The notes beneath the pieces were generated by a model that had not been told where the DNA came from, did not search any database, and saw only the letters and a program-made list of their open reading frames with translations. From IMG/VR virus record IMGVR_UViG_3300008261_000042: 64,000 bases of DNA; one strand, written 5' to 3'. Origin of the DNA: a virus. Below, one piece after another: positions 16,371 through 60,746 of the stretch (position 1 is the stretch's first letter; each line of letters opens with the position of its first letter). The position numbers were made by a program, and so were the translations under genes.

Positions 16371-17136
16371 TATAAATGATTTTAGAAAAATGTCTATCTC
16401 TTCAGTTTACTTTAATGATGAGATTAAAATAAAATCAATTAAAAATTTAGAATATGAATACATTAAATTAGATAAAAATGTAGGATATTGGATTACCGAT
16501 TGTCCATTTGTAGATGGATCTTTTATAAAATATATGGAATTTGTTAAATCAAATCCTATATGGAGAATGAATAACGAATACGATTTGGAAGATACTAATC
16601 CATTTGCAACAATTCATCTACCAGATTTTTCAACTAGACCATTGTTTAATTTATTATATCAATTTTACTCTTCTACTATTGGTTATAATAAAGATGTTTC
16701 GGTAAATGATTGGGGAAATATTTATTTTAAAGAGCACTCACGTCCTATAAAAAGATGGAGGCTTCCTCATATGGATTATGTTTCTGGTTTGGTAGCTAAT
16801 CTTTGGTTTACTAATCATGATATAAATTCTACAGGAACTAATTTATATTTTTATAAAGGAGTGACTCATGGAATTAATTATGATTTCCAAGTAAATGAAA
16901 GTCATCCATTATATAAAGAATGGCACAATATGAAATCTAAAGATCGTGATATTAAATGGAATAATTTTTCTATCGATGAAGCTAACTATTGGGGATTTGA
17001 ATTGCTTGGCAAAGCTCCAACTAAATATAGTTGTATGACAATGTACTATCCAAATATTTCTCATGCTCCATTTATTGAAGATGACATAAAATTTAGATGG
17101 TCACATACTTTTAGTTGTTTTTCTAATTTTTTATGA
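16357..17136 (+). CDS. putative 2OG-Fe(II) oxygenase-like protein
   Basis: PHMD...GTNLY...HAP...RWS (HxD...H...R triad). Confidence 0.6.
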   Translation: MQEYDINDFRKMSISSVYFNDEIKIKSIKNLEYEYIKLDKNVGYWITDCPFVDGSFIKYMEFVKSNPIWRMNNEYDLEDTNPFATIHLPDFSTRPLFNLLYQFYSSTIGYNKDVSVNDWGNIYFKEHSRPIKRWRLPHMDYVSGLVANLWFTNHDINSTGTNLYFYKGVTHGINYDFQVNESHPLYKEWHNMKSKDRDIKWNNFSIDEANYWGFELLGKAPTKYSCMTMYYPNISHAPFIEDDIKFRWSHTFSCFSNFL

Positions 17137-17723
17137 TTAATGTTGAGCATATTTTTCCTGTTCCTATTTGGTCAATTGATTTAGATCTTAATTTAAACGA
17201 GATAGAAACTTATATAAGATCTATTAAAAATGTATCTAATGGGCGAGCTATTTCAAATGTAAATGGATGGCAATCAGATTCATTTGATACAAAACAAGAA
17301 ACAATTCCAGAGATAAAAAGGTTATTTTATCTCATACAAAAATATTTAAAATTATGTTATGCAGAATATGGTAGTGCAGAAAACCCAGAAATTGACAATT
17401 ATTGGTTTAATATAAATTATCCAGGTTCTTCAAATTTAGATCATCTACATTCTAGATGTTTTTTATCTGGTTGCTTTTATGTAAATACATCTCTTAACTG
17501 TGGGGATATTGTTTTTAAAAGATCTTCATTAGAAGATTATATAATTTCTTCTAATGTTGGATTATCTAATACTAAACTATCGGCATCTCATTGGAAATAT
17601 TCCACGAAGCCAAATCAAGTATTAATATTTCCTTCATGGATTTCTCATTTTGTCGAAGAAAATAAATCATCAGAAGATAGAATTTCAATTGCTTTTAATA
17701 CGAGGTCTTTAAAATGGGAGTAA
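17133..17723 (+). CDS. putative 2OG-Fe(II) oxygenase (TIGR02466-like)
   Basis: SNVNGWQS, WFNIN, HLH, SGCFY, FPSWISHFV, RISIAFN. Confidence 0.85.
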   Translation: MINVEHIFPVPIWSIDLDLNLNEIETYIRSIKNVSNGRAISNVNGWQSDSFDTKQETIPEIKRLFYLIQKYLKLCYAEYGSAENPEIDNYWFNINYPGSSNLDHLHSRCFLSGCFYVNTSLNCGDIVFKRSSLEDYIISSNVGLSNTKLSASHWKYSTKPNQVLIFPSWISHFVEENKSSEDRISIAFNTRSLKWE

Positions 17724-56753: not shown

Positions 56754-56762
56754 TGCTTTTTT

Positions 56763-56847
56763 GGAGAGGTGGTCGAGTGGTTTATGGCACTGGTCTTGAA
56801 AACCAGCGAGGTGCAAGCCTCCGTGGGTTCAAATCCCACCCTCTCCG
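56763..56847 (+). tRNA. tRNA-Ser(UGA)
   Basis: GGAGAGG/CCTCTCC acceptor stem, CTGGT-CTTGAAA-ACCAG anticodon arm, long variable arm, GTTCAAATC T-loop; CCA not encoded. Confidence 0.93.
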
Positions 56848-56866
56848 TTTAGCTCATCTATAAATT

Positions 56867-57028
56867 ATGAAAATCAATCTTTGGTATTGCGAACAAATGA
56901 AACAATGGAGATGGACTCTTGTTGATGATCATCGTCCAATTATTCGTCAAGAATCTGGTCAACGTCCAGACCTTCGTGACGCAATGAATGATGTAGCAAA
57001 CACAGTAGAATATATGTTGGGGAATTAG
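56867..57028 (+). CDS. small hypothetical protein (53 aa)
   Basis: MKINLWYCEQMKQWRWTL...EYMLGN*; last 10 nt overlap tRNA-Ala. Confidence 0.55.
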   Translation: MKINLWYCEQMKQWRWTLVDDHRPIIRQESGQRPDLRDAMNDVANTVEYMLGN

Positions 57029-57091
57029 CTCAGTTGGTAGAGCACCTGCTTTGCAAGCAGGCTGTCAGGAGTTCGAGTCTCCTATTCTCCA
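57019..57091 (+). tRNA. tRNA-Ala(UGC)
   Basis: GGGGAAT/ATTCTCC acceptor stem with G3:U70, CCTGC-TTTGCAA-GCAGG anticodon arm, GTTCGAGTC T-loop. Confidence 0.95.
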
Positions 57092-57126
57092 TTTAATAAA
57101 TATTTGTATAATTTTTTTTACCTACA

Positions 57127-58254
57127 ATGCCAAATAAGATAAATCCTTTTTCTGGATTATCTAAAGAAACAATTGAACAAATGTCTGAAAAAGGTACTGT
57201 ATGGATATTTAATAGAGCGTTAATCAATAATATAAGATATAATAGTATTGAAGATATAAAAAGAGATCCTAAATTTAATGAGTTGAAAAAAATTTGGCGG
57301 GGTAGTGTTCCTGATGCTTGGTTGCTTTCTTATTATAAGCAGCAGGAAGAGATGCTAAAAAAATTTGGATCGTCTGAATGGTCTAGATTTAAATATGGTT
57401 CTGGTAGTTTTATGGATTTTATAAAAGATGTCCTTAGAACTTTAAATATAAATTCCGAAAATAAACTTAGATATGAGCAATGGAATCCAACAGATATTTG
57501 GATGATTAAAAAAAACTCTATTACCAAAATAAAACGTCAAATATCTAAAAATATAAAAAGAAGGAGTCAGACAATAATTGAGTTGAATGATTTGTTAAGA
57601 TCTTTGATAAAAAATAAAGAACTTATTGGAATATCTTTAAAAAAAATTGGCACTGGGGATGCAAAATTTATTTACATTAATGTAGATATAGATGGGGTAG
57701 AATCTTTAGTTAGGGATAATACTAATATTAATGTTGTTAGTAATATCGAATATTCTCTAGATCAACTTCAATGTAAAGTTGAATTTGACGGAGGAGATAA
57801 AATTCAAATTACAAATAACACAGGACAAAATAAACCAGATAATTTAAAATTTGAAGTTATTATAAAAAAATCTGGTGGAAAGGGTGGTAAAGTTGTGATA
57901 AAAGATCTTTCTGATTTAATGAAAAATTATGGGAAAAATTTTAGTAATAACTATAAAAGATATCCTTTAACCAGTGAAAACTATGAGAGAAATAAAAATG
58001 AGTATAAACAACTGGTGAATATTCTAAAACAAAAAAAGGTTATATCATCAAATATTTCATTTAATGAATTTGACGATGCTATATTAAATCTTTACGAAAA
58101 TGATAAACCATATTATGCTATAACTAAATTAATGGAATTAAAATTTTTAAGTGCTGCTATTCAAATCAATGATCAAAATGAATTTTGGACTGATATGTAT
58201 TATCTTGGATTAAAAGTTGGAAATAAATTTGCTCCTCATGGGAAGTTGTACTAA
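57127..58254 (+). CDS. AT-rich putative PD-(D/E)xK-type endonuclease
   Basis: WNPTDIW...GISLKK motif; Lys/Asn/Ile-rich; ATAAATA at 57096-57102. Confidence 0.5.
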   Translation: MPNKINPFSGLSKETIEQMSEKGTVWIFNRALINNIRYNSIEDIKRDPKFNELKKIWRGSVPDAWLLSYYKQQEEMLKKFGSSEWSRFKYGSGSFMDFIKDVLRTLNINSENKLRYEQWNPTDIWMIKKNSITKIKRQISKNIKRRSQTIIELNDLLRSLIKNKELIGISLKKIGTGDAKFIYINVDIDGVESLVRDNTNINVVSNIEYSLDQLQCKVEFDGGDKIQITNNTGQNKPDNLKFEVIIKKSGGKGGKVVIKDLSDLMKNYGKNFSNNYKRYPLTSENYERNKNEYKQLVNILKQKKVISSNISFNEFDDAILNLYENDKPYYAITKLMELKFLSAAIQINDQNEFWTDMYYLGLKVGNKFAPHGKLY

Positions 58255-58547
58255 TGAAAAATTTTAAACAGCTGAGACAAGAAACTCTTCGTGAGCGTTA
58301 TATTCAAAAAGAAGTATTCCAAGAAGGTGACTATGTTATGTCTGTAGTTACTGGAGAGAAAGGACGTATTCATCGTTCTGGAACTAACTATGTAATTGCT
58401 ATTACAGAAGGTGGACAGATGTTTCGTGCATGGGTAAAAGATATACGTGAAGTCAATGTATCTGAAAACATAAATAAAGAAAGGAAAAAAAGTATATTCT
58501 TTACAAATGGACAGACAGAAACCAACGACAACAGTTCGTCATTATGA
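58254..58547 (+). CDS. hypothetical protein with MKNFKQLRQE leader
   Basis: FQEGDYV...G.IHRSGTNYVI...FRAWVKDI; TAATG coupling. Confidence 0.7.
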   Translation: MKNFKQLRQETLRERYIQKEVFQEGDYVMSVVTGEKGRIHRSGTNYVIAITEGGQMFRAWVKDIREVNVSENINKERKKSIFFTNGQTETNDNSSSL

Positions 58548-59454
58548 TGATTTCACTAAAGCATTAATTGAATCAACCGCTGCTTATCTTGGTGGTGATA
58601 AAGTAGTTTCTGAAGAAGGTATTCCCACGCTTCCGAAGAAAGAAAATACAGATACAACTGCGAAGAAAGATCCAAAAGCAGGTGCAGCATCAGCAGATCC
58701 TGCAGTAGATCTTCGTACTGGATCTGGAATTAAACAATCACATGGAGCTACAATTCGCAACACAAGTATTCTTACTAAAGAAGAGAAGTGTAAAGAATGT
58801 AAGAAAGATCCTTGCTCTTGTGATGAGAAAGAAGATAAGATGGATGAATCATGTGGTTCTTCTCATGGTGAAATGAAGAAGGAAAAGAAGGAGAAAAAAG
58901 AAAACGAAAAGATGGATGAAGTATTCAACGTATTTGTTGACGATGTTCATTATGTTTTTGAAAAGAAGAATTCTGAAGGTAAAGAGCAAGGTCTTGATGG
59001 CAAAGCTTGCTGGAAAGGATACAAAAGAATGGGCACTAAACAAAAAGGTGGTAAGACAGTTGATAACTGCGTAAAGGCTGGTTATGAACCAATCGGTGAA
59101 CTAATGCTCGATGAGAAGGCACCTCCAGGTGCAAAGTATGAGCGTATGGTTAAGCATATTAAAAAAGGTTATTCTGAAGGTGGTGTAAGCGAAAAGGAAA
59201 AGTCAATCGCTTATGCTACTGCTTGGAAAGAAAAGAATAAAAAGAAAGCAACCAAAGAGGAATTTGAAATTACTGAAAAGAAACTTGATCCTCTTGGTAA
59301 AGAAGATAAGGATATTGATAATGATGGTGATCATGATAAGTCGGATAAGTATCTTGCCGCTCGTCGTGGAAAGGTAAGCAAGATTATTGCTGCTAAGAAA
59401 AAGATGAAAGAAGATACTGAAATTCGTAAGGAGATTGAAGAAGAAAAAAAGTGA
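58507..59454 (+). CDS. highly charged candidate internal head protein with a -1 frameshift site at its end
   Basis: Late promoter at 58470-58476; ACWKGYKRMG...NCVK, IAYATAWK and DIDNDGDHDKSDKYL modules; ends A AAA AAG TGA. Confidence 0.7.
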   Translation: MDRQKPTTTVRHYDDFTKALIESTAAYLGGDKVVSEEGIPTLPKKENTDTTAKKDPKAGAASADPAVDLRTGSGIKQSHGATIRNTSILTKEEKCKECKKDPCSCDEKEDKMDESCGSSHGEMKKEKKEKKENEKMDEVFNVFVDDVHYVFEKKNSEGKEQGLDGKACWKGYKRMGTKQKGGKTVDNCVKAGYEPIGELMLDEKAPPGAKYERMVKHIKKGYSEGGVSEKEKSIAYATAWKEKNKKKATKEEFEITEKKLDPLGKEDKDIDNDGDHDKSDKYLAARRGKVSKIIAAKKKMKEDTEIRKEIEEEKK

Positions 59455-59480
59455 AAGGGGCAACCGTTGAGGTAATGCCC
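59428..59480 (+). other. programmed -1 ribosomal frameshift signal (dnaX-type)
   Basis: AAGGAG (59428-33), 11 nt, A AAA AAG (59445-51), 6 nt, hairpin GGGCA-ACC...GGT-AA-TGCCC; -1 frame open to 59573. Confidence 0.65.
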
Positions 59481-59612
59481 AATCTTCCTACTGATGTAGA
59501 TCATGCAGATAAATCGAGAAAAAAGAATAAGAAGTATGTTCTTAAGGCACTGAGAAGTCAAGAGAAAGAATAAATAAAAAAGGGAAACCCGAAATAACAT
59601 AAGGAGGATATT

Positions 59613-59808: not shown

Positions 59809-59831
59809 GGGGAGGTAACTCCCCTTTTTTT
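59809..59831 (+). terminator. intrinsic terminator
   Basis: GGGGAG-GTAA-CTCCCC followed by T-run, immediately followed by TATAAATA (59831-59838). Confidence 0.88.
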
Positions 59832-59873
59832 ATAAATATTTCTTAGATATAAAGTTCAATTTGGAGAAATTAA

Positions 59874-60746
59874 ATGTCTCTATACGGGAAAGATGATTCA
59901 AACGCTAACGTAACCAAAGCTGGTCGTGGAGTCGCTGCATCATCACAGGCAAAAACAATTGTATTTGTAGATAATACTGAAGCTGCTCTATCAGAAAATA
60001 AGCTACGTGGACTTAATGCTCCAGGCTGGTGGGCATATTATACGTTTACTGATTGTGATGGAAATACTCGCCACAAAGCAGAGCATTTAGTAACTATTGC
60101 TGATCCAGAAGCTAATGCTTCAGAAACACAATCTGATGATACACTAGCAGCAGACGTAGCATCAGCTATTACTATTTCTGGTCAGCCATCTAATCAATCG
60201 ACTAGCACTCCATCTGGTGCAATTCTAACTGTAACTAGAGCTGGAACTGCTGCTACTGGAACTGGATCTTACACCATTACTGATGCAACTGCTGGTGTAA
60301 CAGTCGCTAATGTTTCTGGTGGTGCTGCCCCATCTGGTACATGGTCACTTGGAATTTCTAGATCTGGCGGAACTTATACAGTTACTGTTAATGCTGGTGG
60401 TGCAAACTTTGCTGCTACCGATACTATCACTATTCCTGGTGATCTACTTGGCGGAGCTGCTACAACCAACGATCTTGTTGTTACTGTTGCTACCGTTGCA
60501 ACTGCAGCAGCAACATTCAGTGTCACTGCATCTGCTACAACTGGTTCTCTTGTCTATCAGTGGCAGCGTAGAACAAGCAGCACAGCTAAGTGGACAAACG
60601 TATCTGGAGCTACTAGTTCTTCCCTTGCTCTTACTGGACTTACTACAACTTCAAGTGGTTACCAGTATCGTGTCAAGCTTACATCATCTGCTGGTGCTGA
60701 AGAGGTTATCTCTAATACAGCAACACTTACAGTTACCGCTGCATGA
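59874..60746 (+). CDS. Ig-domain virion surface protein (Hoc-like)
   Basis: ITISGQP...ATFSVTAS...YQWQ...GATSSSL.L...YRV...ATLTV Ig signature; consensus late promoter. Confidence 0.7.
   Translation: MSLYGKDDSNANVTKAGRGVAASSQAKTIVFVDNTEAALSENKLRGLNAPGWWAYYTFTDCDGNTRHKAEHLVTIADPEANASETQSDDTLAADVASAITISGQPSNQSTSTPSGAILTVTRAGTAATGTGSYTITDATAGVTVANVSGGAAPSGTWSLGISRSGGTYTVTVNAGGANFAATDTITIPGDLLGGAATTNDLVVTVATVATAAATFSVTASATTGSLVYQWQRRTSSTAKWTNVSGATSSSLALTGLTTTSSGYQYRVKLTSSAGAEEVISNTATLTVTAA

Follow-up and report, generated by a model that had tools for sequence, protein, structure and literature searches.

The 64,000-nt stretch of DNA analyzed here, referred to below as the window, comes from a T4-like cyanomyovirus. 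Its nearest database relatives are Kyanoviridae myoviruses of Synechococcus and Prochlorococcus, and the genes that flank the locus of interest encode a DNA polymerase, UvsX, a DnaB-type helicase, MazG, a primase and NrdA. At the locus itself, an open reading frame (ORF) of 315 amino acids (aa) ends in GAA GAA AAA AAG TGA, and the frame one base behind it stays open for a further 40 codons. The following features were located:

58469..58476, plus strand: T4-type late-promoter-like motif, CATAAATA, 31 nt before the start codon and inside the 97-aa gene
58507..59454, plus strand: 0-frame ORF of 315 aa, assigned to phrog_4359 and to the S-PM2 p142 family; highly charged and modular
59428..59433, plus strand: AAGGAG, Shine-Dalgarno-like, 11 nt 5' of the heptamer; possible 5' stimulator
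59445..59451, plus strand: slippery heptamer A_AAA_AAG in 0-frame phase, kept in phase by 57 of the 64 distinct relatives
59452..59454, plus strand: 0-frame stop codon TGA, directly 3' of the heptamer, which terminates the short form
59458..59480, plus strand: hairpin after a 6-nt spacer from the heptamer; possible 3' stimulator
59451..59573, plus strand: -1 frame extension of 40 codons plus TAA, assigned to phrog_11250, with an invariant VEVMP-type motif and a basic tail

An initial annotation of this DNA had read the locus as a complete dnaX-type programmed -1 frameshift cassette. Every detail of that layout was confirmed, from the end of the 315-aa ORF and the in-phase heptamer to the AAGGAG at 11 nt and the hairpin at 6 nt, and translation in the -1 frame from 59451 returns exactly the 40 residues claimed, closed by the TAA at 59571-59573. 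The hairpin is modest. It consists of 5 bp plus 3 bp with a loop of 5 nt and a bulge of 2 nt; taken alone within the 42 nt 3' of the heptamer it folds at -11.8 kcal/mol (z ~ -1.7), and a 49-nt segment with a further small hairpin in it reaches -15.4 kcal/mol (z -2.2), a value equalled by 6 of 200 shuffles.

Two tRNA genes, tRNA-Ser(TGA) at 56762-56848 and tRNA-Ala(TGC) at 57018-57092, lie just upstream of the gene cluster; they are the only ones encoded in the window, and tRNA-Lys was not found among its tRNA genes. In shifts of the dnaX/IS3 type, AAA and AAG are expected to be decoded in the host by a single tRNA-Lys(UUU); a scan of genome contigs with the phage Hsp20, meant to reach host tRNA-Lys genes, matched unrelated bacteria and no cyanobacterium. 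The neighborhood made up of these two tRNAs and the flanking genes named above agrees with the earlier statement that the site lies outside the tail-chaperone context. The 97-aa ORF upstream (58254-58547) has a PHROG match with the name 'ribonucleotide reductase alpha subunit'; its counterparts in isolates are called NrdB or 'possible cytidyltransferase'; given the size of 97 aa, these names look like propagated misannotation.

The window is A-rich, and AAAAAAG occurs in it 33 times versus 36 expected from shuffles. Because the heptamer is at chance frequency there, the single copy in the window proves nothing, and the significance of the site has to come from conservation among relatives and not from one sequence. 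Of the 136 long frames of the window, only 3 combine a slippery heptamer no more than 4 codons from the stop with a -1 frame that stays open for 30 codons or more. The other two such frames belong to an oxygenase gene cluster: at 17127-17133, T_TTT_TTA stands directly before TGA and is by sequence an ATGA overlap with the next gene, and at 17708-17714, T_TTA_AAA stands two codons before TAA. Both -1 frames are open for about 200 codons.

Conservation of the heptamer and its stop codon

Loci of relatives were retrieved from a viral contig collection, with the 0-frame protein as the sole query (whole, then its last 76 residues). Ten sequenced isolates with a C-terminal module at the gene end were added, six of which are part of the analyzed set. 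The resulting 64 distinct junction regions were retrieved without reference to the heptamer.

A_AAA_AAG was found in phase in 57 of these 64 relatives, directly before the stop codon in 51 and one codon earlier in 6. The stop codons that adjoin it in the 51 are TGA (38), TAA (12) and TAG (1), and TGA and TAA alternate between close relatives. Among sequenced isolates, the slip site is present in S-PM2 (p142/p143), S-RIM32, Syn1 (163/164), S-CAM1, S-CAM3, Sf-CH11 and Sf-FR1. The Lys codons of a KKxKKY motif in the extension, which served as a control, show free interchange of AAA and AAG across this set, whereas the terminal Lys-Lys of the upstream gene is always AAA AAG with a preceding A. Of the 56 relatives that were compared there, only 3 have a second in-phase A_AAA_AAG inside the extension (59519-59525), which was therefore dismissed as a slip site.

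These counts bear on two explanations that need no ribosomal slip. The first is that the arrangement has no function and only reflects a gene end rich in Lys and in A, or else a homopolymer assembly error. The chance frequency of the heptamer in the window would fit this, and such artefacts do exist, as a pilon-polished contig with a broken gene (P0040, see below) illustrates. Against it, the arrangement recurs in 57 distinct sequences from many independent assemblies as well as isolates, and the -1 frame bears the marks of purifying selection. The number of independent sequences excludes chance or assembly error, and we give this explanation a negligible probability.

The second is transcriptional slippage, in which RNA polymerase would add one A within the run of seven A's (59444-59450) and a subset of the mRNA would encode the same 355-aa protein that a ribosomal slip would give. 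One added A would indeed yield an identical product, and slippage of this kind is known on A or T runs in bacteria (PMC5009743). It is efficient on runs of 9, however, and a homopolymer of 9 or more is typical of it (PMC5009743); the run is 7 in the window and only 6 in four lineages (L017, L103, L116 and L126), all of which keep the heptamer. Moreover, what is conserved is six A's and a G in fixed phase with an adjacent stop codon and, in most lineages, a hairpin at 5-7 nt; these are marks of ribosomal slippage, and slippage by a polymerase does not require them. Transcriptional slippage is in our judgment a very unlikely source of the extended form.

The remaining 7 of the 64 relatives lack the heptamer, and all 7 have instead an ATG start that overlaps the stop codon (ATGA) and opens a longer downstream ORF, the start of which precedes the shared VEVMP motif by about 25 residues. 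The same overlap is found in the isolates S-H9-1, S-RSM4, S-MbCM7 and Sf-CH1b. Because the ATGA overlap is present in all of the heptamer-less relatives, slip site and proper start codon are complementary across the set. In these 7 lineages the downstream part clearly stands as a gene of its own that starts with ATG, and a separate downstream polypeptide can therefore be functional.

This raises the question of two separate genes throughout, the 40-codon ORF being translated alone, either by reinitiation at the GTGA or from the internal ATG of the VEVMP motif, with the A-rich gene end doing no more than encoding Lys-Lys. Every database record does annotate two CDS, and none of the isolate records carries a joined CDS. 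A GTG overlaps the TGA at the junction in the window and in 38 relatives, a layout that also permits termination-reinitiation; a true ATGA-coupled downstream gene exists in the 7 lineages and in four isolates; and a Shine-Dalgarno sequence near a gene end can serve such coupling (PMC5009743). A conserved start codon that overlaps the upstream stop, as expected of coupled genes, is nevertheless confined to the ATGA of the 7 heptamer-less lineages. The junction codon is GTA, not GTG, in 13 distinct lineages, a replacement that also counts against the alternative named in the initial annotation, independent initiation at the overlapping GTG (59451), and the alternation of TGA with TAA between close relatives points the same way. 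The AAGGAG lies 17 nt before the GTG, too far for initiation. Finally, the heptamer is invariant where an ATG start is missing and lost where one is present. The coding pattern of the extension and a natural fusion of the two parts, both described next, complete the case against separate genes.

Coding signature of the -1 frame

Upstream of the heptamer, column entropy is highest at the third position of the 0 frame (1.10 vs 0.73 and 0.68 at the other positions). Right after the heptamer the maximum shifts to the third position of the -1 frame (1.01 vs 0.61 and 0.47). Over the 40-codon extension, the -1 frame has a dN/dS of 0.24, as opposed to about 1.1 for either alternative frame. Among codon pairs that differ within the 7 codons from the junction to the first ATG, 50% are synonymous when read in the -1 frame vs 8.5% and 1% in the others, and when only the lineages with a TAA or TAG stop are considered, the values are 38% vs 7.6% and 0%. 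The junction GTA of these TAA/TAG-stop lineages is unable to start translation, yet the codons before the internal ATG are under protein-level selection even there. In two lineages, L154 and L126, the homologous extension ORFs run to 50 and 53 codons and contain no ATG, GTG or TTG at all, and Leu stands in both for the Met of the VEVMP motif. Comparison across relatives in this way reveals selection on the slip site, on the phase it occupies and on the protein-coding character of the -1 frame, starting at the junction itself.

An in-frame fusion in nature

The 40-aa peptide alone, searched against a set of 5.8 billion proteins, returned no longer protein that contains it. A profile built from 35 extensions and searched against longer proteins led to P0036, a 338-aa protein in which the upstream module continues in frame into the VEVMP extension. 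P0036 is encoded on at least 10 contigs, which come from several independent assemblies and share the same gene neighborhood. The two parts can thus form one polypeptide, judging by this lineage. In this fused lineage (L178, 1501-2517) A_AAA_AAG is kept, and the -1 frame meets a TGA three codons later; a slip there would yield the short form, by analogy with the orientation of E. coli dnaX. P0040, considered as a second in-frame fusion, was rejected: it derives from the pilon-polished contig mentioned above, where the gene is split into three pieces, and was attributed to a homopolymer error.

With start-less lineages and a natural fusion on one side and the two-CDS annotation on the other, the proposal of separate genes is improbable, though less so than transcriptional slippage. 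Initiation or reinitiation at the GTG may still add to expression where a GTG is present.

Candidate upstream and downstream stimulators

The two candidate stimulators are less constant than the heptamer. Upstream, AGGAG or GGAG is found 11 nt from the heptamer in most relatives; the S-PM2 group has AGGAGG at 7 nt, and L015 has no Shine-Dalgarno-like element. The bases of the AAGGAG double as Lys-Glu codons. Downstream, a GGCA...TGCC hairpin starts 6-7 nt from the heptamer in most lineages. Across 34 aligned relatives, pairing holds in 67-72% of cells vs 19-50% with slid partners. A few of the pairs are changed on both sides in these 34, and covariation support for the hairpin is modest; its 3' arm is, in addition, fixed by Met-Pro codons. 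Among the relatives folded, the S-PM2, Syn1 and S-CAM3 groups lack it. The S-CAM1 group has an insertion of 14-15 residues that displaces the usual hairpin, and a different, perfect 7-bp hairpin stands at the same 6-nt spacing, with variation confined to its loop.

The description of a complete dnaX-type cassette therefore applies in part. The heptamer (in 57 of 64 relatives) and its adjacent stop codon are constant, but the AAGGAG is partly conserved, and so is the hairpin, missing as it is from three groups. We take the heptamer and adjacent stop to be the probable core signal and the stimulators to be lineage-specific additions.

The 315-aa protein, its expression and its possible place in the virion

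Pfam and NCBIfam searches with the 315-aa protein matched no family, and an Atlas search with it returned no function; its Atlas model is poor (pLDDT 0.52). A tblastn search of a phage collection with the 76-residue C-terminal module likewise returned nothing, probably owing to the low-complexity filter. In PHROGs, the ORF and the extension fall into separate groups, phrog_4359, which is unnamed, and phrog_11250. The protein is built of modules, namely a conserved N-terminus, a Cys-rich stretch, a DUF6321-like segment and an acidic loop. The loop, of DxDxDGxxDxxD type and encoded at 59311-59346, is the best-conserved part. It recurs in P-SSM2, P-SSM4 and S-SCSM1 proteins that are otherwise differently built, and it appears to resemble calcium-binding loops.

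The initial annotation had called the product of this gene a late head protein and an internal virion protein. 'Late' gains support. Of the 17 sequences examined, 16 have NATAAATA, the consensus of T4-type late promoters, 33-38 nt ahead of the ATG, and relatives' versions of the motif read TATAAATA or AATAAATA. In some lineages (L178, Sf-FR1) NATAAATA is intergenic. Because the motif is common in the window when one mismatch is allowed (206 sites), its weight rests on its conserved position. It is this conservation, which includes the lineages where the motif is intergenic, that makes late expression likely, and the gene is probably expressed late from this candidate promoter. Beyond the 3' end of the gene, a terminator-like hairpin with a T run (59809-59824) is followed at 59831 by an exact TATAAATA. 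These elements, which together span 59809-59838, precede a virion-protein gene at 59874 and part the unit from that neighbor.

'Head' and 'internal virion protein', on the other hand, were not observations from the sequence, and PHROGs, Pfam and NCBIfam return no function that would back them. In T4, L-x-E is the prohead-protease site. A conserved N-terminal motif around residues 19-23, which resembles such a site, was considered as support for an internal head location and rejected, since several relatives have Asp or Asn in place of its Glu. The GenBank record of a distant phage, S-SCSM1, gives the name 'virion protein' to two syntenic proteins with modules in common with the 315-aa gene. 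One of them, of 520 aa, shares the acidic-loop module (E 9e-10), and the other is DUF3008-like, judged from sequence. The paper on S-SCSM1 reports virion mass spectrometry (PMC9602691). By analogy with these proteins, the product of the 315-aa family may be packaged in the virion.

Proposed mechanism

The conservation of the heptamer, the coding of the -1 frame, the lineages without a start codon and the natural in-frame fusion together make programmed -1 ribosomal frameshifting the best reading of the site, and we consider it very probable. These four lines of comparison lend strong support to the earlier proposal that the gene gives a short and a C-terminally extended form. An in-phase slippery heptamer and an open, conserved and coding -1 frame, which together characterize a -1 frameshift cassette, are both present.

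Under this mechanism, most ribosomes on the 315-aa gene would halt at the TGA (59452-59454) and free the short form. Some would slip one base back on A_AAA_AAG, after which the GTG at 59451 would be read as an internal valine, and would go on for 40 codons to give a 355-aa form. The slip could follow either of two routes: tRNA-Lys could re-pair from AAA AAG to AAA AAA, or a P-site tRNA-Lys could slip with the stop codon waiting in the A site. We infer that the slip itself is ribosomal. In the clade of the window, its efficiency is presumably raised by the AAGGAG at 11 nt on the 5' side and by the hairpin at 6 nt on the 3' side. The short and extended forms are presumably both needed, possibly at the fixed ratio that the initial annotation had supposed.

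Judging from the relatives, the extension is the point at which differing C-terminal modules are attached. The module at the junction is a short basic tail in the window and a DUF6321-like module or DUF3008 elsewhere; the DUF3008 match in S-PM2 scores 26.6 bits vs a cut-off of 24. A broader and tentative idea, which we think somewhat more likely to be wrong than right, is that T4-like cyanophages join the two parts in three interchangeable ways, by frameshift in most lineages, by a stop/start overlap with two polypeptides as its outcome in some, and by in-frame fusion in one. If so, the selected trait would be the ratio of short to extended form, and the slip site would be a docking point for swaps of C-terminal modules (basic tail, DUF6321-like, DUF3008) onto a late, possibly virion-packaged protein.

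Comparison with known recoding sites

The closest parallel is E. coli dnaX, which has the identical heptamer, A_AAA_AAG, the most shift-prone in E. coli (PMC5009743). Shine-Dalgarno stimulators of -1 shifts work at 9-14 nt upstream, a range that includes the 11 nt seen here, and the simple 3' stem-loop of dnaX is matched by one about 6 nt downstream (PMC5009743). The tau and gamma products share a common N-terminal part, as is proposed for the two forms here. The dnaX protein is, however, unrelated to the 315-aa protein, and here the two stimulators are not both kept in all relatives. The outcome of the shift is also reversed. In dnaX it ends translation one codon later and gives the shorter product, whereas here the stop codon is in the 0 frame and the shift would give the longer product; such a reversed layout has been mentioned for dnaX of a few bacteria (PMC5009743).

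An outcome of the latter kind is also seen in mobile elements, from which the present locus differs in being no mobile element and having no transposase. In the IS3 family (IS911, IS150), the first ORF of the orfA-orfB pair carries A_AAA_AAG close to its end, a Shine-Dalgarno sequence precedes the heptamer and a structure follows it, and the shift yields a longer fusion. The 3' stimulator of IS911 is a three-way junction, and about 56% of IS elements have a 5' Shine-Dalgarno stimulator (PMC5009743). The extension at our locus comprises 40 codons and is not a catalytic domain as in that family.

Phage examples are more distant. Gene 10A/10B of phage T7 has a slip site of G_GU type, and its protein is the major capsid protein. 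The slip site of lambda G/GT is G_GGA_AAG. The lambda protein is a tail chaperone, unlike the 315-aa protein, and G/GT is located between the tail-tube and tape-measure genes; the locus described here is located among replication genes and genes of unknown function, and not between major tail and tape-measure genes, the position typical of tail chaperones. Copies in relatives adjoin cytidylyltransferase-associated genes.

A separate site of related layout was noted in a different phage protein of at least 590 aa with a DUF6321-like end (L024:1784-1834, and also L025-L028), which terminates in TCA AAA AAG TAA. An 8-bp hairpin begins 5 nt further on, and the -1 ORF is 73 codons long, with its first common start codon (GTG) 29 codons in. 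We regard it as a second candidate for -1 frameshifting; results for all five copies (L024-L028) were identical.

A literature search, which included a 2016 recoding review, found no mention of frameshifting in the gene of the 315-aa family or in cyanophages. The mechanism is already known from dnaX and the IS3 family, and what would be new is its occurrence in this cyanophage gene family.

Conclusions

The mechanism proposed here is a textbook one, and the gain lies in annotation and comparative biology, with no new principle. S-PM2, Syn1 and S-CAM1 are cyanomyoviruses that serve as model viruses of the ocean's main photosynthetic bacteria, and in all three the gene pair is annotated as two hypothetical genes. 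If the frameshift reading is true, S-PM2 p143 and Syn1_164 would be C-terminal extensions and not genes, and gene counts, orthologue tables and proteomic search databases would need a joined entry. The family would also offer a natural series for the evolution of recoding, in which frameshift, coupled genes and in-frame fusion occur in close relatives while stimulators come and go.
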